A stretch of 64,000 bases of DNA, from NCBI GenBank assembly GCA_963708295.1, contig CAVPSJ010000020.1:83431-147430 (forward strand). Direction: 5' to 3'. Every line of letters starts with the position of its first letter. The first letter of the stretch is position 1. Below, one piece after another: positions 1-7,898 of the stretch. The notes below the pieces were generated by a model. It was given only the letters and a program-made list of their open reading frames with translations, made no database searches and was not told the DNA's origin. The position numbers and the translations under genes are program-made. The DNA comes from an uncultured delta proteobacterium (lineage in GTDB: Bacteria > Desulfobacterota > BSN033 > UBA1163).

Positions 1-228
1 TGATAGGATCGATTTCAGCTCTTCCATTGAAATGTTTTGAGGAGGGGCAATTTTTGCAACCGGGACAGGGTCAAGAGGGATAACTTTAGTGGGTATGGCT
101 AAGGCCACTTCCGCTTCCAAAGGGGTGAAGTTTACTTTGAGGATCTCCAGAAGCTCTTCTTTCTCCGGATACCCCATGCCCAAAGAAGACAGGTGCCTCG
201 CCAATCGCTTGTAAATTTCATCGGCCAT
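1..228 (-). CDS. N-terminal part of a probable 4Fe-4S-binding protein with N-terminal helical/wHTH region (continues beyond window start)
   Basis: Manual translation MADEIYKRLARHLSSLGMGYPEKEELLEILKVNFTPLEAEVAL..., with GGAGG SD upstream of ATG at 228. This N-terminus is typical of deltaproteobacterial 4Fe-4S proteins; the Fe-S motifs would lie outside the window. Confidence 0.6.
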   Translation of the reverse strand, partial: MADEIYKRLARHLSSLGMGYPEKEELLEILKVNFTPLEAEVALAIPTKVIPLDPVPVAKIAPPQNISMEELKSILS

Positions 229-239
229 ACAGCCTCCGT

Positions 240-442
240 AGAACCTGGGATGATGGAGTATTGGAGTACTGGAGTAATGGAAAAAGCAACCTCCAGATTC
301 GAATAAGAAATAACATTGTTTTAGTCATTACTCCATCCATAGAACCTGGAGTATTGGAGTAATGGAGTGCCTGAGGAACTAAACAGAAAATAACATTGTT
401 TTTATTCATTACCCCATCACTCCACCACTCCATTATTCCATT
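240..442. repeat. Two tandem ~100-bp units built from 8-bp-period GGAGTA(T/C/A)T arrays and complementary CCAxxACT arrays (hairpin-forming intergenic repeat)
   Basis: AGAACCTGG...GGAGTATTGGAGTACTGGAGTAATGG...AAATAACATTGTTTTTAxTCATTACxCCATC occurs twice. Confidence 0.75.
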
Positions 443-454
443 TTTAACTTATCT

Positions 455-3012
455 TCATTCCATCCTCAACGATTCCACCATGTTCATTCTGGCAGCCCGC
501 CGGGACGGGATGAGCCCGGCACCGATCGACGTGACCATAACCACCAGCCAGGACTCGATCAAACTCCAGATGGGAACGGAGAACTGGATGGTCCATCCAA
601 AGGACTGTTTGTTAATGACATAAACGAGAAGGACGGAAAGGAGAAACCCGCAGACGAGGCCGAAAATATGGCTGAAAAAGCCAATCATCCCTGCTTCGAT
701 CAGCGTGGTTTTCTCGATCTGTCTGCGGAAGGCACCCACTGCCCGGATGATCCCGATATCCCGCTGCCTTTCGATGATCAGCGCATTCAAGGAGTTAATA
801 ATTCCAAGAATGGCCACGATCATAGCGATAAATTCCAGCGCATAGGTAATCGCAAAGGTCTGGTCAAAGATCTTCAGAACCTCTTTCCGCAACTCCCGGT
901 GGGAAACCACAAAGAGACGATAAGGTTTGGAGTATCTTTCCCGGATCATCTCCTTGAAGGCCTCCTGGGAGACCCCTTCTTGGAGATAGATTCCGGCGCT
1001 GTGAAGCGTCTCATCGTTCCACAGCGATTGAAAGATTTTTTTCTCCAGCAGGATCATTCCCCAATCTGAAGAATAATCGTAGAAGACTCCGGAGATCAGA
1101 AACTCTTTTTCCCCTTGGGGGGTGTTGACCTTTATCCGGTCTCCGGCCTTCACGTGATGCCTGAGTGAGAAACTCTCGGTGACGAGAATGGCCCGGCCGG
1201 CGGCAAACTGCCGGAGAATGGCCCGAGGATTCCCTTGTGTGAAGCGGATCACCTTCAAGTTGAGAAATACCTCTCCATCGACAGATGCGATCAGGGCGGG
1301 CTGGCCTTGATATTCGACTTCCAATGCCCTGAAGGGATCAACAGCCTTCACTCCGGGAAGAGAAGGCAAGGCCCTGGAGACCTCCAGGGGGAGGAGGGCG
1401 GAGTACCCTGTGATGGAGTAGGAGCCCGGGAAGATGAACACGTCCCCGTTGATCGATTGTTCCACCCAGAGATCCACCGTCTTCCGGAAGCTCAGGATCA
1501 TGATCGAGATGCTGATCAGCATCGAGAGGGCGGTCATCAATGCGGCAATCGTGATCACGGTCCTGGCCATCGAATCATGGATATATCGACTCGCCAGTTT
1601 TCCTTCGGGACCAAAGAGGAAACGGAGAGCCGGAGCCATCAGACGGTTCAGGAGATGGGTGGCAGAAGGGATCAGGAAGGAGACCCCTACGACAATGAGA
1701 AGTGCAGCCATGAAGCCCAAGATGGGCCGGTGAGCGATGGGTTTCTGGAGGGCAAAAATGAGCGAAAGGATGAGAAGACCCATCCCGATGAGATTGAAAC
1801 GCCCGGTACGAGTTTTTACTTTCTTTTCGAGGGTTCCCAGCGCCAGGGCCTCCGTGGGGGCGATCCCTGAGGCTTCCCTGGCGGGGCCGATCGAGGAGAG
1901 AACCGAAGCAAGCACTCCCATTCCAAAGCCTGCCATTAACACGGACGGAGAGATCAAGAGATGTTCTGCCTTGACCAGAATATAGAGAGCCGTAATCGTT
2001 CTTGAGACGAGATAAAGCATGGCCTTTGCCAACCCTATCCCGATTCCTATCCCGAACAGACTTCCCAAACATCCGATCCATGCCGCTTCACTGATGAAAA
2101 GACCGAGGACCTGGGGTCGGGTCAGACCGATGCTTCGAAGAATTCCAACCTCCCGCCTCCTCTGAATGATCGAGATGGAGATGGCGTTATAGATCAAGAA
2201 CATTCCCACAATGAGAGAGATAAAGCTGAGGGCAGTCAGGTTGAGGTGAAAAGCCGAAACCATTTTTTCGATTTGACCGCTCCGGGTATCGGACCGGCGA
2301 ATCTCGACTCCGGGAGGGATTACTTTTTTCAGGTCTCTCTCGATCGTGTCCGCCGCCATGGATTTGTCTACCATCAGGTCAATCCGGTCGATGAGGCCGA
2401 CCTTCTCCAGGGCTTCCTGAGCGGAGGCGATGTCGATGAGGCCGAAATTTCCTTCCAGCGATTTGGCAGGCCCCTCCATCTTTAGAAGATGGGTGATGGT
2501 AAAGGGTACCTTTTTTGATCCTACGATGAGATGGATTGGCCCTCCTTTTTCAACCCGTGCCGGCTGGCCAGTTTTTCGGTGATGGCAATGGAATTTGGCG
2601 TTTTCAAAAAGAGGAGGTCCGACGCATCCGTTTCGTAGAATTGATATTCCCTGAAGGGCCGATCACTAAAGACGTCAACGCCGAGGAGATAGAGGGGTTC
2701 TCCGATGGGCTCATCGATTTTGGAGACATATTGAATGACGGGTGTGGCGGCCTTGACTCCGCGAACGCTTTTTACCTTGAGGTAGACGTCTTCAGAAAAG
2801 CCCCTCCCAAAGGAGGTAACCTGGAAATTGGCTTTCCCCGAGACATGATCGACGGAGGCGTTGAAGGATTCGATGGCCGTGTAAATGGCCGTCTGGACAC
2901 TGACGAAAACAGCCACTCCCAGGGCGATTCCTATTATGGACAGGAGGGTTCTGCCTTTATGGTGACGGAGATGGCGGAGAGTGATATTCTTGAGGAGGTG
3001 AAAGAGGACCAT
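455..3012 (-). CDS. ABC transporter permease, FtsX/MacB-like, two permease repeats (frameshift near 2480-2550)
   Basis: ORFs 2521..3012 (RTLLSIIGIALGVAVFV) and 455..2479 (QRRREVGILRSIG, ERQRDIGIIRAVG) are two parts of one permease. Confidence 0.85.
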
Positions 3013-3018
3013 ATAGAA

Positions 3019-3190
3019 AAATCCGAAATACGAATATCTAAATCCGAAACAAATCCAAATTCTCAAATTTCCAATGTTCTAAACTTTTTTCAGCGATCTG
3101 TTTTAAGTTTTGAATCTTGGTCATTCGGTATTGTTTCTAATTGATCGCTAATGCGATGCTTCGCCCGGATTTCGTGCTTCGATATTCATA
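3019..3190. repeat. 7-bp-period imperfect palindromic intergenic element (AAATCCG/AAATxCG array), copy 1
   Basis: AAATCCGAAATACGAATATCTAAATCCGAAACAAA...ATTGTTTC...GGATTTCGTGCTTCG; a related copy lies at 29095-29212. Confidence 0.75.
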
Positions 3191-3199
3191 AAGTTGTGG

Positions 3200-3886
3200 T
3201 TACTCCGTCAGAAGTTTGCCGTCGCGCATTTGGATCACCCGATCGGCCGCGGACGCTCCTTCCAGGCTGTGAGTGACGAGGACAATCGTCTTTCCACGCT
3301 CGTCCCGCAATCGCGCCAGAATCTCCAAAACCTGCTTTCCCGAGGCCGAATCGAGATTCCCCGTGGGCTCATCCGCGAGGATCATTTCGGGATCGTTGAT
3401 TAAGGCCCGGCAGATGGCCACCCGTTGCATCTCTCCGCCGGAGAGTTCGTGGGGATGATGATAGCGTCTGTCCGAAAGGCCGATTTCTTCAAGGAGGCGT
3501 TCCATTTGAGCCGGCGGAGGGTTGGAGCCTTCCCGCAGCAGATAGGGGAGGGCGATGTTCTCTTCGAGGTTCAGAATGGGCAGGAGGTTGAAGAATTGGA
3601 AGATGATCCCTACGCGGTCCCGCCGAAACAGAGTCAGCTTCCGGTCGTCCATCCGGGAGATGTCCTCCCCTTGGATCATCACGGAGCCTTGGTCCGGGGA
3701 ATCGAGCCCTCCAAGGATATTAATCAGGGTGGACTTCCCGCACCCGCTTTTGCCTGTAATGGCTATAAATCCTCCTTTGGGGAGGTTTAAGTTGACATGG
3801 TCCAGGGCAATCACCGGGTTTTCCCCCGGGTGATAAATCTTTGTGACCTCCCTCAATTCGATGAAATGATCTTCTGCCATGATCAA
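3200..3886 (-). CDS. ABC transporter ATP-binding protein, LolD/MacB-like
   Basis: Walker A GKSGCGKST, LSGGEMQR, ILADEPTGNLD, VTH. Confidence 0.95.
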   Translation of the reverse strand: MIMAEDHFIELREVTKIYHPGENPVIALDHVNLNLPKGGFIAITGKSGCGKSTLINILGGLDSPDQGSVMIQGEDISRMDDRKLTLFRRDRVGIIFQFFNLLPILNLEENIALPYLLREGSNPPPAQMERLLEEIGLSDRRYHHPHELSGGEMQRVAICRALINDPEMILADEPTGNLDSASGKQVLEILARLRDERGKTIVLVTHSLEGASAADRVIQMRDGKLLTE

Positions 3887-4038: not shown

Positions 4039-4950
4039 TCAATCTTCAAAGCAGGCTTTCGGCACGCTGGAGAGGTCTAATCCATCGTAGAATCTTTCAA
4101 TTTCGATTGAAAGTTCCTTGATCTTTCTTAATAAGGGTTCGGGAATGAGAAGAGTTGCTTGAGCCACCTCCTCTTCATAGAGGTTGTGTCTGAGATATTC
4201 GGGTTCGCTCTTGCCGAACCATATCTCTGCCTCCCACGATTTTTGATTGAAAAATTCGGTCTTGAAATGCTTCTCACTCAGCCCGAACGGGCTCCCGGGG
4301 GAGATAAAGGTCAGTACTCCGTGATTGGACGCGGGCCTGGCAGCGAGATTGGCATACATGCACATAAATTCTCCTCCGAAGGCAACCGAGCGAACTGACA
4401 GACTCCGTCCGTTGATTTTGCTTTCGACATATTCTTGAAGAAGGTAAGGGTTCGATGCAAGATTCAATTTCCAAACAGAGGAAGGCTCGTTGACGATCTG
4501 CAAATCCCTTCCTCCTCTTCCTACCCGCCGCTTCAAAATCACCTTCTGCTTTCTTCCGATGAAACGGCCAACCCCGGCCGTATCTTCCGGGTTAAAGATC
4601 ATCGTCTCCGGCATGGGGGCAATGGCCTTAAGCAACTGGTATTGATTCCACTTGTCCTCCAACCTCAATCCAGGATGAAAGGTGTTCGGGAAGGGTCCCA
4701 TACCGTCCATCCAGATCTTGAAAGGTTTTAGGCTGCTGATAAAGGGAAGGGAATGAAGGTAGTCTTTGAAGGTCTTTCCATAAACTTTTTGAGAAGTCGA
4801 TTCGATTCGCTGGAAGATATCCGAGGGTTTCCCAAAATGGACCGCATGGGTAAGATGATATTCATGAGCCCCGCCGGGAAGGCCGACATTCACCTCCGCC
4901 AGGTAGAGCATCAACTCAGGAGTGATCAGAAAGTCAATTCCGAGATACAT
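4039..4950 (-). CDS. ATP-grasp-fold protein (RimK-like), apparently circularly permuted
   Basis: EDKWNQYQLL..PMPET, VILKRRVGRGGRD and LLQEYVE motifs; GIDFL..YLAEVN..PG lies at the extreme N-terminus. Confidence 0.7.
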   Translation of the reverse strand: MYLGIDFLITPELMLYLAEVNVGLPGGAHEYHLTHAVHFGKPSDIFQRIESTSQKVYGKTFKDYLHSLPFISSLKPFKIWMDGMGPFPNTFHPGLRLEDKWNQYQLLKAIAPMPETMIFNPEDTAGVGRFIGRKQKVILKRRVGRGGRDLQIVNEPSSVWKLNLASNPYLLQEYVESKINGRSLSVRSVAFGGEFMCMYANLAARPASNHGVLTFISPGSPFGLSEKHFKTEFFNQKSWEAEIWFGKSEPEYLRHNLYEEEVAQATLLIPEPLLRKIKELSIEIERFYDGLDLSSVPKACFED

Positions 4951-4957
4951 GCCACAC

Positions 4958-4995
4958 AAAAAAAACAGGTCATCGATTCACCCGACCTGTTCTCT
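4958..4995 (-). terminator. Intrinsic terminator
   Basis: AACAGGTC/GACCTGTT stem followed by a T8 run on the minus strand. Confidence 0.7.
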
Positions 4996-5005
4996 TGAGT
5001 TAAGG

Positions 5006-5098
5006 TCATTGCGAGGAGTAAAACGACGAAGCAATCTCATCGCTTAGCGGGTGAGATTGCCGCGCTCTCCCGCTCAGGCGGGATCGCTCGCAATGACA
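5006..5098. repeat. GTCATTGCGAG...CTCGCAATGAC palindromic element with a nested TCCCGC...GCGGGA mini-hairpin
   Basis: Terminal inverted repeat GTCATTGCGAG/CTCGCAATGAC; internal GCAATCTC/GAGATTGC. Confidence 0.8.
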
Positions 5099-5137
5099 AC
5101 CTGGACCCATTGGATGCATTTTTCCCATAGGGCAAGA

Positions 5138-5167
5138 GGGGCCCCCTCCCTTCCTGGGAAGGGGCCC
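5138..5167 (-). terminator. GC-rich hairpin just downstream of the peptide gene (terminator or mRNA stabiliser)
   Basis: GGGCCCCCTCCC-ttcct-GGGAAGGGGCCC, a 12-bp stem with one mismatch. Confidence 0.55.
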
Positions 5168-5177
5168 GATGAATGAC

Positions 5178-5240
5178 TTAACAAGATGCTTTGCATTTGC
5201 AAAGGCCGGAGAACTTCTTGGCCACCTTCTTGATGGTCAT
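5178..5240 (-). CDS. 20-aa Lys/Cys-rich peptide MTIKKVAKKFSGLCKCKASC, putative RiPP precursor (below the ORF-track cutoff)
   Basis: Strong SD AAGGGAGGTGA embedded in the last codons of the rSAM gene; ATG 1 nt after the rSAM stop; TAA at 5178; hairpin downstream. Confidence 0.75.
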   Translation of the reverse strand: MTIKKVAKKFSGLCKCKASC

Positions 5241-5241
5241 A

Positions 5242-6408
5242 TCATTCACCTCCCTTCAGAACCCCTCTCGCAAAACATTGAAAGAGATCGGGTTGCAAAA
5301 GATTGCTTTCAACTTTGGCCCTATAGCGGCACCCCCCTCTGCACTCTTCAATCACGTCGCATTTGCAGACAAGGTCTTTTAATGAGATGCGAAGGATGCG
5401 GACCCAACAAGTTCGAAGTCCTTCTTCGATAGATCCCGTCGGTTCTTGACTAAAGAGACCACACTTACAGACGGCTCCGTTCGCCATTATAGCACAAAGG
5501 TGAGCGCCGCAAGTAGAATTTCTTGTTGAACCGTGAAATCCGCCTCCAAACCCGTAAGCAAGAAAATGGCCGGCTTCAGAAGGAGACACGTGAAGGTCCT
5601 GGTTTTCTTTCAGTCTTCCCTCAACACAGGGAACATCCACATTCCATTCCTCAATTCGTTTTGATTGAAGAAGGGAGGCCAGCCGGTCGAACTCCGACAG
5701 ATTTCGCCGGTGAATCATCGTCGCCACGGAAACCCGTATGTTGGCTTCTTGCAGATGGTTAACGGCGGTGATGGCTTTTTCGAAGGTTCCTCTTCCTCGC
5801 AGCGAATCGTGACCTTCTTTCATACCATCGAGACTGATCTGGACCTCATGAACACGGAGCTTTTTGGCGACTTCTCTGGAGATCAATGTGCCGTTGGAGA
5901 GGAGAACCGATCGAAATGGATAGTCTCGAAGAATCTCGTTTAATTGCCAAAAATGAGGGTGAAGCAAAGGCTCCCCTCCGGACAGAAGGAGTCTCAGCCC
6001 TTGGATCTCTTCAAATTGGTCCAATACTTTTTCGATCTGTTTCCTTGAGAGATCCTGATGAGAACCTTCCCCGATGTAACAGTGGCGGCACCGGAGGTTA
6101 CACCGGTTGGTGATCTGGAGCTCAAGATACCGTAAGGAAGGAGCCGGGGAAGGATTCGAAACGATCTTTCTTTGGGAAGGGGCTTCCGAGAAGGCGATTA
6201 AGTTTTCGTCGAGGCAAAATCGGATGAATTCTTCATCTTCCTGCCGTACAGGAGGACTTTCACCCCGGCAGATGCGGAGAAGAAATTGATACCCATCCTC
6301 GTTCAGTTCATAAAGTTCGTCTTTTTCGATATCGTAGAGGTAGCGTTCTTCGAGATTTTTAAGAACAGCGTGAGGGGAAAGGGTGATGACCCTATTCTCG
6401 AAGGGCAT
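5242..6408 (-). CDS. Radical SAM/SPASM protein with N-terminal PqqD/RRE-like domain (putative peptide maturase)
   Basis: CNLRCRHC, SGGEPLLH, QISLDG; SPASM cysteines (CGA..CKC..CKC..CRGGC..C); N-terminal YLYDIEKDELYELNEDGYQFL, a beta-beta-beta-helix RRE pattern. Confidence 0.9.
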   Translation of the reverse strand: MPFENRVITLSPHAVLKNLEERYLYDIEKDELYELNEDGYQFLLRICRGESPPVRQEDEEFIRFCLDENLIAFSEAPSQRKIVSNPSPAPSLRYLELQITNRCNLRCRHCYIGEGSHQDLSRKQIEKVLDQFEEIQGLRLLLSGGEPLLHPHFWQLNEILRDYPFRSVLLSNGTLISREVAKKLRVHEVQISLDGMKEGHDSLRGRGTFEKAITAVNHLQEANIRVSVATMIHRRNLSEFDRLASLLQSKRIEEWNVDVPCVEGRLKENQDLHVSPSEAGHFLAYGFGGGFHGSTRNSTCGAHLCAIMANGAVCKCGLFSQEPTGSIEEGLRTCWVRILRISLKDLVCKCDVIEECRGGCRYRAKVESNLLQPDLFQCFARGVLKGGE

Positions 6409-6574
6409 CGGAGATCTCCTCGGAGGTGAGGATCTTCTTTTCTAAAAGCCGCTTGAGAATTTTGTAGGCGCCGCATTCCAGGTCCTTGTCGGACTCTTTA
6501 TAAAAATCGCAATGCTTACAGATCAATTCGGTCAAAGACTCTTTATCTAATTTCACGAGATTTCCTTTCGCCAA
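6392..6574 (-). CDS. Small CxxC-x11-C hypothetical protein overlapping the rSAM start
   Basis: ICKHCDFYKESDKDLEC; 17-nt overlap with the rSAM gene. Confidence 0.7.
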   Translation of the reverse strand: MAKGNLVKLDKESLTELICKHCDFYKESDKDLECGAYKILKRLLEKKILTSEEISDALRE

Positions 6575-6752: not shown

Positions 6753-7031
6753 ATGGTCAAAAAACCTGAAAAAGGAGCCTGCGCCGAACCTGCCTGCGGG
6801 AAAGTGAGTTGTTGCAGGGTGGATGCACTGATCGGCGTCGACGAACGTGGGCAGATGGTCCTTCCCAAAGAAGTCAGGGATAAAGCCGGTATCCGCACAG
6901 GAGACAAGTTGGCGCTTGTGAGCTGGGAGAAGGACGGAAAAGTGTGCTGCTTGACTCTGATTAAGGCCGATGAATTCGAAGGGATGGTGAAGGGGCTCCT
7001 GGGTCCGATGATGAAGGAAGTGATGGGATAG
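6753..7031 (+). CDS. Cys-rich AbrB/MazE/SpoVT-fold protein, HgcAB-associated HgcC-like
   Basis: VDERGQMVLPKEVRDKAGI..GDKL AbrB motif; two CC pairs plus two further Cys; GGAGG SD. Confidence 0.8.
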   Translation: MVKKPEKGACAEPACGKVSCCRVDALIGVDERGQMVLPKEVRDKAGIRTGDKLALVSWEKDGKVCCLTLIKADEFEGMVKGLLGPMMKEVMG

Positions 7032-7061
7032 TGCTGCTAAATAATGCGGAGGTGGCCGAAC

Positions 7062-7898
7062 ATGGAAAAGGAAGAAATAAGAAAAGTCGTAAGAGAGGGC
7101 TACGGCAAAATCGCGAAACAAGACAGCTCGTGCTGTGCTCCTGAAAAATCCTGTTGCGGGAGCGCAACGTCAGCGCAGGATATTGGCAGAAAGATAGGAT
7201 ACAGCGAAGCAGAATTGAAAACCGTTCCCGAGGGAGCAAATTTGGGCCTTGGATGCGGCAACCCTATCGCTCTCGCATTATTAAAAGAAGGGGAAGTGGT
7301 TCTCGATCTGGGGTCAGGCGCGGGTTTTGACTGTTTTCTCGCTGCCAACCAGGTGGGTAAGACGGGGAGAGTCATCGGGGTGGACATGACGGCGGAGATG
7401 CTCGACCGGGCAAGAGAGAATGCCCGGAAAGGCAATTATGCCAATGTGGAATTCAGACTGGGAGAGATCGAGAACTTACCCGTGGCAGACCATCAGGTGG
7501 ACGTCATTATCTCCAATTGCGTGATCAATCTTTCCCCGAACAAGAAAAGAGTTTTCCGGGAAGCCTTCCGTGTGCTCAGGCCGGGTGGAAAGTTAATGGT
7601 CTCTGACATTGTGCTTCTCAAAGAGCTACCCGCCGAGGTCAAAGATTCCGTGGCCGCCTGCATCGGCTGCGTGGCGGGAGCCGTGACCAAGAAGGAGTAC
7701 CTGGAGGCGGTTCAGGCTGCAGGATTTGAGGAGACCAAGATTGTGGGCGAAGCGGCTTTTTCCACGGAGCTCCTGGTCAGTGATCCGGTAGCCAGAGAGA
7801 TTGCTAAGAATCTGAACCTGTCCCCGGAAAGAGCCGAGGATCTGGCGAGCTCAGTCGTGAGTATCAAGGTCTCGGCAACCAAGCCGGCCGTGAGTTAG
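7062..7898 (+). CDS. arsM: Arsenite S-adenosylmethionine methyltransferase
   Basis: N-terminal SCC/SCC, LGLGCGNP, VLDLGSGAGFD, IISNCVINL, GCVAGA. Confidence 0.93.
   Translation: MEKEEIRKVVREGYGKIAKQDSSCCAPEKSCCGSATSAQDIGRKIGYSEAELKTVPEGANLGLGCGNPIALALLKEGEVVLDLGSGAGFDCFLAANQVGKTGRVIGVDMTAEMLDRARENARKGNYANVEFRLGEIENLPVADHQVDVIISNCVINLSPNKKRVFREAFRVLRPGGKLMVSDIVLLKELPAEVKDSVAACIGCVAGAVTKKEYLEAVQAAGFEETKIVGEAAFSTELLVSDPVAREIAKNLNLSPERAEDLASSVVSIKVSATKPAVS

Follow-up and report, generated by a model that had tools for sequence, protein, structure and literature searches.

A conserved tri-cysteine peptide gene and a radical SAM/SPASM enzyme point to an undescribed peptide-maturation system in two bacterial phyla

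Results

Organization of the locus

The window (the entire stretch of 64,000 nucleotides analyzed here) carries, on the minus strand, the genes for a small Cys-motif protein (Cys60) and a radical SAM (rSAM)/SPASM enzyme, then an open reading frame (ORF) of 20 codons encoding MTIKKVAKKFSGLCKCKASC, and a hairpin, in this order (Table 1). The stop codon of Cys60 and the start of the enzyme gene overlap by 17 nt. The enzyme gene ends with ...AAG GGA GGT GAA TGA, and the ATG of the peptide follows one base on, which places GGAGG 8 nt from this ATG. The original prediction of a hidden 20-aa ORF behind the rSAM gene, with its Shine-Dalgarno sequence in the last rSAM codons and a GC hairpin after its stop, is confirmed in the sequence.

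Table 1. Features of the peptide locus (positions in the window)
Feature	Position	Strand	Remarks
MTIKKVAKKFSGLCKCKASC peptide gene, 20 codons + stop	5178-5240	-	ATG at 5240, TAA at 5178-5180
Radical SAM/SPASM enzyme P0001, 388 aa	5242-6408	-	Pfam Radical_SAM, E 2e-23
RRE-like (PqqD-like) N-domain, residues ~1-85	6154-6408	-	Predicted model, SuiB superposition
CX3CX2C cluster motif, C103/C107/C110	6079-6102	-	Invariant in 34/34 aligned sequences
SPASM region, C300-x10-G311-x4-C316...C348-x-C350-x5-C356-x3-C360...C378	5275-5511	-	Conserved cysteines, fold alignment
Shine-Dalgarno sequence GGAGGTGAA for the peptide, in the last rSAM codons (G G E)	5245-5253	-	
Cys-motif protein Cys60, 54 aa, GTG start at 6556	6395-6556	-	CxxCxF...CG[AG][FY] motif
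12-bp GC hairpin, loop AGGAA, just past the peptide stop	5139-5167	-	Weak T-run
ATP-grasp enzyme P0003, likely start ATG at 4950	4039-4959	-	Pfam ATP-grasp_3, E 1.1e-5
ABC ATPase	3200-3886	-	Candidate exporter component
MacB/FtsX-type permease pieces	2521-3066, 455-2479	-	Candidate exporter component

The 196-nt stretch that includes the GC hairpin folds with z = -5.46 relative to 200 shuffles, and a matching hairpin (loop AAGAA, AGGAA or ATGAA) is present, as judged by eye, in 13 of the 14 Syntrophaceae-type loci, L017 being the exception. Across these loci, TGAAAGGAGGTGA is retained as the Shine-Dalgarno sequence of the peptide, and a similar sequence, GAAAGGnGGTG, precedes the peptide genes of Nitrospirota. 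The combination of Shine-Dalgarno sequence and hairpin was also considered as the mark of a wider regulon; this idea was dropped, as 4 of 5 genomes have CCCTATGAAAGGGAGG at the peptide gene and nowhere else. A scan for promoters and terminators between 4900 and 6800 yielded 3 promoter-like sites (1.6 expected), none of them convincing for the operon.

Of the 14 Syntrophaceae-type loci, 5 (L010, L012, L013, L014 and L020) have genes for an ABC ATPase and permeases on the downstream side, several of the others ending earlier, and none were seen in the Nitrospirota loci; the ABC ATPase and the MacB/FtsX permease are a possible, weakly linked exporter of the system. The neighboring HgcC/ArsM pair, which might hint at a metalloid connection, was rejected as a part of the system because it is confined to a subclade: besides the window, 4 of its 14 Syntrophaceae-type relatives have the pair, which makes 5 of 15 loci. 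Other neighbors include NifU/NifS genes in the window and genes for rubrerythrin-like proteins, SOD and peroxiredoxin in Nitrospirota.

The 20-codon ORF is a conserved gene

Among 36 homologous loci retrieved via the enzyme alone, an ORF of 19-20 codons adjoins the enzyme gene in 25, and other genomes carry the peptide elsewhere, in line with the expectation that a genuine partner would recur. The 55 distinct versions of the peptide, every one 19-20 residues long, share the pattern M-x-I-K/R-K-V...T-C-K-C-K-x-S-C, so that the proposed division into a Lys-rich N-terminal half and a Cys core is conserved; K15 and K17 are invariant, and the invariance of CKCKxSC is partly due to ascertainment in the pattern-found set. 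All 55 versions terminate at the last Cys, an end that is fixed by the search pattern in most of them and independently ascertained in 26 enzyme-found loci. UGA/Sec variants, anticipated in the original prediction, number zero among these 26 enzyme-ascertained peptides.

Comparison of 25 distinct ORF sequences gave pN/pS = 0.167/0.795, a ratio of 0.21 overall and of 0.07 across codons 14-20, with synonymous changes at or near saturation. The two alternative frames hold stop codons in 25/25 and 17/25 sequences, respectively, and a start codon with a properly spaced Shine-Dalgarno sequence is found in all 70 peptide copies. Thus the 20-codon ORF is a genuine conserved gene, its conservation countering a chance origin. 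It is present in a single copy in its own genome. In Nitrospirota, a promoter-like TATAAT, at a distance of 59-78 nt from the start codon, lies upstream of 37 of 56 peptide genes, and hairpins with NNGAA loops likewise lie upstream of 37 of the 56.

A 219-nt metatranscriptome contig spans 5094-5312, including the peptide gene, with 0 differences; it is the sole contig over the peptide in RNA library X1, and library X2 contains relatives at 85-95% identity across the operon, contigs from RNA libraries being no proof of transcription in either case. The 20-aa peptides were not found in a collection of 15 billion proteins, which indicates that gene callers miss them, as had been predicted; they are apparently missing from protein databases because they are too short for gene calling. 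No NCBIfam family matches the peptide at E <= 0.1, Rfam yields no match at the peptide leader at E <= 1 in 8 loci, and no Pfam, NCBIfam or Rfam family covers the system. A literature search found no description of the peptide or of its pairing with the enzyme; the lone match to a text search with the core motif was an unrelated firefly paper.

The enzyme has the predicted architecture of a RiPP maturase

In the AF2 model (pLDDT 90, pTM 0.90), the enzyme has the architecture of a RiPP maturase, that is, radical SAM and SPASM domains and a fused RRE-like domain. The closest solved structures are SkfB and SuiB (Z 25.9 each), both superposed over the full length; with SuiB, in a structure that has its precursor bound, 359 residues align (model 7..384, chain 1..439; rmsd 4.1, identity 17%), and the corresponding profile match is weak (E 1.8e-5). 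The RiPP maturases CteB and ChlB are also among the top matches; other matches of the enzyme include MftC and EpeE, and PqqE matches the model with Z 20.3.

The modeled N-domain (elements E7-10, E14-18, E22-26, E31-34, H37-47 and H56-67; block-mean pLDDT 86-94 over residues 11-80) bears out the proposed RRE-like region in that it has a strand-strand-strand-helix-helix layout and, as part of the whole-enzyme superposition, aligns with SuiB from chain residue 1. Residues E20, Y25, D30, Y33, E34, F61, C65 and E68 of this domain are invariant in the alignment. The seven SPASM cysteines (C300, C316, C348, C350, C356, C360 and C378) and G311 show little or no variation across 34 aligned sequences, and the cysteines form the pattern for two auxiliary clusters, with the first spacing being CxC rather than CxxC. 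The fold of this region aligns with those of the SuiB, CteB and anSME SPASM domains (to residue 384 on SuiB and anSME). The assignment of the RRE and SPASM domains rests on the fold and the cysteine pattern because the Pfam PqqD and SPASM models do not match the enzyme at E <= 0.1.

The enzyme reaches no NCBIfam family cut-off. The best match by E-value is WgkB (105 bits vs 650), and the scores for TIGR03962 (MftC) and TIGR03942 (anSME) are 90.2 bits vs 265 and 61.2 bits vs 349, respectively. The initial impression that the system belongs to no named family stands, and no characterized non-peptide family reaches its cut-off.

The enzyme and the peptide co-occur across genomes, linked or not

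In 301 sampled Nitrospirota genomes, 124 carry both genes, 1 the peptide only, 6 the rSAM gene only and 170 neither, so that both genes are present in 124 of the 131 carriers of either one. In the window's own class (68 genomes), 35 carry both, 33 neither and none a single gene, with patchy presence inside genera (10/15 and 5/13). These co-occurrence statistics are overstated because genomes within a phylum are not independent; control matches with the reversed pattern were obtained in 0/301, 1/68 and 1/301 genomes. One of the apparent rSAM-only Nitrospirota genomes actually carries a CTCK variant of the peptide, and in three more the rSAM gene is at or close to a contig end.

The two genes are adjacent in 100 of the 124 Nitrospirota double carriers and unlinked in the other 24, either on one contig, 24-675 kb apart (5 genomes), or on separate contigs (19 genomes). 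Genome-level co-occurrence thus recovers enzyme-peptide pairs that are not neighbors and are missed by RiPP mining based on gene neighborhoods. Besides rSAM-peptide and unlinked genes, the order rSAM-ATPgrasp-peptide (G342) was found, as well as peptide-rSAM in another Thermodesulfobacteriota family. Enzyme identity between the two phyla is only 44-50%, yet peptide adjacency is kept. Altogether, about 4 in every 10 of the Nitrospirota species genomes sampled and half of the genomes of the window's class carry the pair, which is also present in more Thermodesulfobacteriota families.

A third partner and a lineage-specific fourth one

The Cys-motif small protein is the third conserved partner of the system. 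Cys60 lies upstream of the rSAM gene in all 14 Syntrophaceae-type loci. Its homolog in Nitrospirota is the second repeat of a two-repeat protein of ~110 aa (Cys110), which adjoins the rSAM gene in all 12 peptide-linked Nitrospirota loci; the Cys protein is encoded in 119 of 130 enzyme-positive vs 2 of 171 enzyme-negative Nitrospirota genomes. The ORF at 6392-6574 is real, but coding starts at the GTG at 6556, and the exact 54-aa sequence is already on record as a 'hypothetical protein'. The conserved cysteines of Cys60 are C13, C16 and C28. Neither Cys60 nor Cys110 has any Pfam or NCBIfam match. The predicted fold of Cys60 is a small helical bundle (pLDDT 72), for which the best hit among 48,161 PDB chains (Z 4.7) is not meaningful; phmmer searches with Cys60 against the PDB and the Atlas returned unnamed clusters only.

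In the window's lineage only, there is a fourth partner, the ATP-grasp enzyme. Of the 14 Syntrophaceae-type loci, 12 have its gene on the downstream side. Within the window's class, this gene is present in 33 of 35 system genomes vs 1 of 33 others; it was found in 0 of 5 Nitrospirota system genomes. The enzyme has no sequence match in the PDB at E <= 1, and in the Atlas it matches only ATP-grasp_3 clusters, apart from a weak lead to YheCD/TTL at 0.94. With these two additional partners, the term 'minimal', which the original prediction had applied to the putative RiPP, no longer fits.

Discussion

A putative peptide-maturation module

Taken together, the gene set points to an undescribed peptide-maturation system in two bacterial phyla. 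We put at roughly 65% the probability that the precursor of 19-20 residues, the rSAM/SPASM enzyme with its RRE-like domain and the Cys-motif protein form a peptide-maturation module. The N-terminal half of the proposed precursor, M-x-I-K/R-K-V-x-K/R-K, is basic, and its C-terminal part, T-C-K-C-K-x-S-C, stops right at the final Cys. The N-terminal half might dock as a strand on the RRE-like domain, and the CKCKxSC tail would then reach into the active site, which lies between the SAM and auxiliary clusters, and be altered there by 5'-deoxyadenosyl radical chemistry. The likeliest outcome would be Cys-derived thioether crosslinks of the sactionine or ranthionine type, perhaps onto carbons of the invariant Lys or of Ser. 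Peptide and enzyme appear to be translationally coupled in the window's lineage, where the ATP-grasp ligase may contribute an additional step. Any such step must use another carboxylate, for example, that of the C-terminus, because the window's peptide has no Asp or Glu. The gene, its conserved pairing and the maturase architecture of the enzyme are established by the data above, whereas we infer how the peptide binds, how it is modified and what its product does.

The product probably stays within the cell because no protease or exporter accompanies the genes in most lineages, and it is probably a cofactor-like or a metal- or redox-active intracellular Cys peptide. The extreme conservation, the own promoter and the frequent unlinking from the enzyme are a better fit for a cofactor or housekeeping peptide than for a secreted antibiotic; conservation far above that of typical RiPP cores fits an independent small protein as well. 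Carried further, and only as a tentative proposal, the three genes might make a new PQQ/mycofactocin-like cofactor or a thiol- or metal-active factor of strict anaerobes. In this scenario, a tri-Cys peptide of 19-20 residues would be expressed strongly and independently of the enzyme, from its own promoter and via a leader RNA with one to three AUGAA-loop hairpins, one of them over the ribosome-binding site. The rSAM enzyme, aided by the Cys-motif protein, would crosslink the peptide for intracellular redox or Fe-S/oxidative-stress use. Such a precursor would be among the shortest that are modified by rSAM enzymes, and the dedicated AUGAA-loop leader is a candidate for a new cis-regulatory RNA.

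Three other explanations deserve attention. Conceivably, the true substrate is the Cys-motif protein, in its Cys60 or ~110-aa form, and the 20-aa peptide is a separate, unmodified pathway protein, such as a metal, Fe-S or thiol carrier. Cys60, with its three conserved cysteines, is translationally coupled upstream of the enzyme, which is the usual position of a precursor; the Cys protein adjoins the enzyme in every linked locus of both lineages and tracks it across Nitrospirota genomes, and the promoter-like box and frequent unlinking of the peptide gene suit a separate protein. A precedent for a Cys-protein substrate is CrpC/CrpA (PMC13692751). However, the peptide tracks the enzyme no less tightly (124/130 and 35/35), the Cys protein lacks a leader/core layout, and its model is a helical bundle of moderate confidence. 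Nor does adjacency give it an edge because, in Thermodesulfovibrio-type genomes with unlinked genes, the Cys protein, too, is encoded away from the enzyme. On balance, we consider the Cys protein an unlikely substrate in place of the peptide.

We are similarly skeptical that the peptide is modified by chemistry other than thioether formation, be it decarboxylation of the C-terminal Cys (MftC-like), epimerization (YydG/EpeE-like), a Lys C-beta C-C crosslink (SuiB/WgkB-like) or a metal-sulfur species on the three thiolates. The constant end at the last Cys, the invariance of both lysines, the ranking of SuiB (a Lys-Trp crosslinker) as top structural match and of WgkB as best NCBIfam match, the presence of MftC and EpeE among the matches, and the Fe-S and oxidative-stress genes in the neighborhood are all compatible with such chemistry; yet the peptide core has no aromatic residue for a SuiB-type link, and the family scores are all far under their cut-offs. 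Moreover, three invariant Cys within seven residues match the classic arrangement of thioether donors in sacti- and ranthipeptides. It is highly improbable that the short ORF is untranslated and that the conserved element is an RNA, such as a terminator, a leader or a small RNA, at the 3' end of the enzyme gene: the hairpins upstream of Nitrospirota peptide genes and the strong one downstream in the window would suit an RNA, but the residues are kept under synonymous saturation, every copy is 19-20 codons long and has a start codon with a properly spaced Shine-Dalgarno sequence, the other frames are closed, and Rfam is empty at the leader.

Under the preferred reading, that is, maturation of the peptide by the enzyme, the peptide would be an unusually small and conserved rSAM substrate, with three invariant Cys and two Lys in seven residues. 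SPASM chemistry could then be studied in a compact model, and sulfate reducers and syntrophs might prove to contain a new kind of intracellular peptide factor.

Comparison with known systems

In Methanococcus voltae, the rSAM/SPASM-RRE enzyme CrpC puts ranthionine links on the Cys-rich product of a neighboring gene, CrpA; unlike the proteins of the present system, CrpA is a large archaeal Cys-rich protein (PMC13692751). A CrpA-like substrate role of the Cys-motif protein, which adjoins and co-occurs with the enzyme, is conjectural. The structural likeness of the enzyme to anSME (Z 24) reflects the common SPASM fold; the TIGR03942 score is under the cut-off, and the anSME target motif, Cys/Ser-x-Pro/Ala-x-Arg, does not occur in the peptide. 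Graspetide cores have Asp/Glu side chains linked to Lys/Ser/Thr, a class to which the window's peptide does not belong, given that CKCKESC variants alone carry one such residue.

The system resembles the sacti- and ranthipeptide systems (CteB/CteA, SkfB/SkfA and SCIFF) in combining an rSAM enzyme that has CX3CX2C, a full SPASM region and an N-terminal RRE with a short Cys-rich precursor, and the enzyme's best matches in structure and sequence include SkfB and CteB. SCIFF is a highly conserved peptide with no obligatory protease or exporter, and the present peptide is likewise strongly conserved with neither alongside; it is not SCIFF, having 20 residues and 3 Cys compared to ~45 residues and six Cys. 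Unlike in these systems, the peptide has only 19-20 residues with three Cys, neither enzyme nor peptide reaches an NCBIfam model, the pair is often unlinked, the peptide gene has a promoter-like box and a structured leader, and there is an additional conserved Cys-motif protein; thioethers here are predicted only. Streptide biosynthesis (SuiB/SuiA) provides the best full-length superposition of the enzyme, N-terminal RRE included, and the radical chemistry of SuiB at a Lys carbon is a possible precedent for the invariant lysines, although enzyme identity is 17% and the peptide core has no Trp.

Mycofactocin and PQQ each derive from a very short conserved precursor, which an rSAM/SPASM enzyme modifies with the aid of an RRE; the C-terminus of the precursor is critical, and the product is used intracellularly. 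The present system is not mycofactocin: the MftC score is under the cut-off, the RRE is fused rather than a separate protein, and the peptide ends with Ser-Cys, not Val-Tyr. Unlike PqqA, the peptide has no Glu or Tyr, and, unlike in both pathways, no additional cofactor-processing genes are conserved. What the system has in common with MftA/B/C and PqqA/D/E is a very short, strongly conserved peptide combined with an rSAM/SPASM enzyme and an RRE.

A conserved short gene behind a radical SAM/SPASM enzyme

The features of the locus are listed in the table. Three elements of the original prediction, namely a perfect Shine-Dalgarno sequence formed by the last codons of the enzyme gene, a peptide start codon one nucleotide past the enzyme stop, and a GC hairpin behind the peptide, are all present.

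Features of the window
Feature	Position	Strand	Remarks
Radical SAM/SPASM enzyme ORF, 388 aa	5242-6408	-	3' end reads ...GGA GGT GAA TGA
Peptide ORF, MTIKKVAKKFSGLCKCKASC	5178-5240	-	ATG one base past the enzyme stop; own stop at 5178
GC hairpin, 12 bp	5139-5167	-	3' of the peptide ORF
Cys-motif protein, 54 aa	from GTG at 6556	-	upstream of the enzyme; 17-nt overlap with the enzyme start
96-nt element	5005-5100		terminal inverted repeats GTCATTGCGAG...CTCGCAATGAC; between the peptide hairpin and the ATP-grasp gene
Terminator-like hairpin	4958-4989		CAGGTC...GACCTG, then eight T; directly before the ATP-grasp start (ATG 4950)
MacB/FtsX-type permease	455-3066		two ORFs (181 aa and 674 aa), stop between them
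AbrB-type protein with Cys-rich N-terminus and arsenite methyltransferase	6753-7898		divergent pair

Using the enzyme alone, and not the peptide, as the query, we retrieved 36 loci from Syntrophaceae-type Thermodesulfobacteriota, the lineage of the window (67-87% identity to the window's enzyme), and Nitrospirota (41-52%). The anticipated short ORF downstream of the enzyme homologs is conserved: 25 of the 36 loci contain a 20-codon ORF just 3' of the enzyme, with the N-terminus M-[T/K/S]-I-[K/R/T]-K-[V/I] and the C-terminus CKCK[A/S]SC-stop, and 2 of the other 11 loci break off inside the enzyme gene. This enzyme-ascertained set comprises 25 distinct ORF sequences, with a mean pN/pS of 0.167/0.795 (0.07 for codons 14-20), where the absolute pS is inflated by many two-fold codons and only the ratio is used; the other two frames hold stops in 25/25 and 17/25 of these sequences. 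Altogether, 55 distinct peptides were collected, with I3 and K5 each present in >90%; although the search pattern itself fixes part of the terminal motif in the peptides found by it, conservation extends to the N-terminal 12-13 residues, which lie outside the pattern. Thus, the peptide is encoded by a translated, strongly constrained gene of 19-20 residues. In the 26 enzyme-ascertained peptides, each of the three Cys residues is encoded by TGY, and the UGA (selenocysteine) variants that had been considered were not seen. As expected for a precursor missed by standard gene callers, the four 20-aa peptides that were looked up in a collection of 15 billion proteins are absent from it.

One locus (L112, G265:C2:14800-15400) encodes a natural variant, MTIKKVVKKTALTCTCKSSC, in which Thr replaces the first invariant Lys; this variant escapes the search pattern, meaning that further carriers will surface with relaxed patterns. 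Some genomes (G347, G348, G314, G357, G025, and G034) contain two or three peptide copies, sometimes with a single enzyme gene, and one of these copies has an acidic residue (CKCKESC). In a single MAG locus (L021), the coding sequences of the enzyme and the ATP-grasp protein are split over several frames, with a degenerate peptide region; this represents either a decaying copy or poor assembly.

The enzyme has the architecture of a RiPP maturase

The only Pfam matches of the enzyme are Radical_SAM and Fer4_12. In agreement with the prediction that it lies outside named families, all NCBIfam models score far below their cut-offs, with WgkB, NirJ, ScmE, GeoRSP, and MftC highest at 90-105 bits vs cut-offs of 265-650. 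In an alignment of 34 sequences, C103, C107, and C110 are invariant, C261 and C334 are nearly so, and the predicted SPASM cysteines are retained as a seven-Cys set (C300, C316, C348, C350, C356, C360, and C378, along with G311). The AlphaFold model (pLDDT 90, pTM 0.90) lends support to the proposed RRE-like N-terminal domain: residues 7-67 are modeled as four short strands followed by two helices. The top structural matches (Foldseek, VIA-align) are SkfB and SuiB, both with Z 25.9, followed by CteB, anSME, ChlB, PqqE, and TigE, and a profile search of PDB sequences yields SkfB at E 1.8e-22. In the SuiB-precursor complex, 359 residues align, with model residues 7..384 on chain residues 1..439, so that the N-terminal domain of the enzyme overlays the peptide-binding domain of SuiB. 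In a quick tree, all 31 orthologs form one group, with three paralogs from the window's own genome outside (SH-aLRT 92), and seven peptide-unlinked enzymes are interleaved with linked ones.

Coupling of the peptide to the enzyme

Species genomes of Nitrospirota, 301 in number and evenly sampled, were searched for the peptide pattern C-K-C-K-x-[S/T/R/C/W]-C-stop, with the reversed pattern as the control, and for enzyme orthologs (E <= 1e-40). The pattern was found in 125 genomes (control, 0) and the enzyme in 130: 124 genomes carry both, 1 the peptide only, 6 the enzyme only, and 170 neither. In 100 of the 124 carriers, the two genes lie 76-329 nt apart; in 5, they are 24-675 kb apart on one contig, and in 19, on different contigs. 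Among the enzyme-only genomes, G265 carries the CTCK variant peptide outside the pattern, the enzyme of G016 and G112 lies at a contig end, and the G043 contig stops ~100 nt past the enzyme. The peptide-only genome (G159) also encodes the Cys-motif protein, so its enzyme may be merely unassembled. In the window's own class (n=68), the same 35 genomes contain both genes and 33 contain neither; the pair is patchy inside genera (10/15 and 5/13), implying that the two genes were repeatedly gained or lost together. In a sample of 301 genomes from the window's own phylum, the motif is present in 22, including 7/9 of a second family where, in the three loci fetched, the peptide is ~0.4 kb upstream of the enzyme. 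Given the relatedness among genomes, no co-occurrence p-value is to be taken at face value.

In five peptide-less Nitrospirota loci (L023, L026, L033, L035, and L039), the enzyme immediately follows gpsA and a Glx-tRNA synthetase gene, and in 4/5 of these genomes, the terminal motif occurs exactly once elsewhere, in a free-standing 20-codon gene; the reversed pattern has no match in these five genomes. Thus, the peptide is evolutionarily coupled to an enzyme with RiPP-maturase architecture. The location next to gpsA (glycerol-3-phosphate dehydrogenase), seen in Thermodesulfovibrio-type genomes, is a housekeeping context, with the peptide and the Cys-motif protein each encoded elsewhere.

Further partners and genomic neighborhood

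The 54-aa Cys-motif protein, the exact sequence of which is already recorded in databases as 'hypothetical protein', aligns to repeat two of a Nitrospirota protein of ~110 aa, with which it has the motif CxxCxF...CG[A/G][F/Y] in common; C13, C16, F18, C28, and G29 are invariant. Searches of Pfam, NCBIfam, and PDB with it gave no match, nor was there a meaningful fold match. The ~110-aa protein is encoded divergently beside the enzyme in all 12 peptide-linked Nitrospirota loci and in no unlinked locus (in Thermodesulfovibrio-type genomes, it is located behind cutA), and is present in 119/130 enzyme-positive vs 2/171 enzyme-negative Nitrospirota genomes (n=301). The small Cys-motif protein is a third coupled partner.

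Further downstream on the same strand are an ATP-grasp gene, an ABC ATPase, and the MacB/FtsX-type permease pieces. The ATP-grasp gene lies 3' of the peptide in 12/14 Syntrophaceae-type loci and, in the window's class, is present in 33/35 genomes with the system vs 1/33 others; it was found in 0/5 Nitrospirota carriers searched and thus is a lineage-specific addition. Given the terminator-like hairpin before its start, it may not be simply co-transcribed with the peptide; a similar T-rich stretch is seen in a relative (L013). The ABC/MacB genes adjoin the module in some close relatives only. The two permease pieces overlap in different frames in L010 and L012, indicating that either the split or a frameshift is conserved. 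The 96-nt element looks like a MITE: it has 16 matches in its own genome, three near full length at 79-82% identity, and metatranscriptome contigs break off at its ends.

The opposite strand encodes an HgcC-like AbrB protein (124.9 bits to the HgcAB-associated protein HgcC, cut-off 70), an arsenite methyltransferase (364.6 bits, cut-off 263), NifU, and NifS. The divergent pair occurs in 5/15 Syntrophaceae-type loci (the window and 4/14 relatives), between NifU and the Cys-motif protein gene.

Nitrospirota neighbors include cupin-like, rubrerythrin-like, and DsrC-like proteins, 2-oxoacid:ferredoxin oxidoreductase, Fe/Mn superoxide dismutase, and peroxiredoxin. In five loci (L024:1040-3967, L025, L028, L038, and L041), the two-repeat Cys protein comes first in a divergent operon with the rubrerythrin-like protein and the oxidoreductase, followed in L024 and L025 by a His-rich cupin-like protein of 114 aa; on the opposite side, convergent genes encode Fe/Mn superoxide dismutase, the DsrC-like protein, peroxiredoxin, or nitroreductase. 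The setting is one of redox and oxidative-stress functions.

Expression signals and a leader RNA motif

In the window's lineage, the peptide depends on the Shine-Dalgarno sequence within the final enzyme codons; three relatives encode an enzyme with 8 additional residues, the gene of which overlaps the start of the peptide. Among the 56 Nitrospirota peptide genes, 37 have an exact TATAAT within 90 nt 5' of the peptide (shuffled mean 3.8, maximum 10), 36 of these at 59-78 nt from the start. In 11/12 linked Nitrospirota loci (L024-L038), this promoter-like box, ~59-69 nt 5' of the peptide, and the enzyme C-terminus (...Y-D/G-I-I-stop) use the same bases.

The peptide gene also has a dedicated leader RNA motif, with one to three NNGAA-loop hairpins in 37/56 Nitrospirota genes (shuffled mean 2.55, maximum 7); ATGAA accounts for 49/68 loops. 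The distal hairpin shows compensatory changes at two stem pairs (17/35 and 11/35 sequences), and the proximal one, CCCU-AUGAA-AGGG, extends into and covers the Shine-Dalgarno sequence and, in 4/5 genomes, is found at the peptide gene only. Rfam contains no match to the motif. Leader hairpins of the C-AUGAA-G type occur in Nitrospirota and the second Thermodesulfobacteriota family (L025:5120-5184, L050:2558-2622, and 33 other loci); the window's lineage instead has an AGGAA- or AAGAA-loop hairpin after the peptide stop. From one metatranscriptome, the 1.7-kb stretch is matched by just one contig, which is 219 nt long and identical to 5094-5312; this is a weak hint at most.

Putative product and comparison with known systems

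The basic N-terminal half of the peptide would bind the RRE-like domain, leaving the CKCKxSC tail to be modified by the radical chemistry of the enzyme. The most plausible outcome is Cys thioether links, with an invariant Lys or Ser as the candidate acceptor; decarboxylation of the C-terminal Cys, epimerisation, and formation of a metal-sulfur species would be alternatives. No conserved protease or exporter is present near the module outside the window's clade and, together with the extreme conservation and the separate, strong-looking promoter in Nitrospirota, this argues for an intracellular, probably cofactor-like product rather than a secreted antibiotic.

In the literature and family-model libraries searched, we found no paper and no model describing the system; the pair is previously undescribed there, with the peptide modification itself putative. 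Although the system falls outside the respective family definitions, in its working it resembles the maturation of sacti- and ranthipeptides, streptide, mycofactocin, and PQQ.
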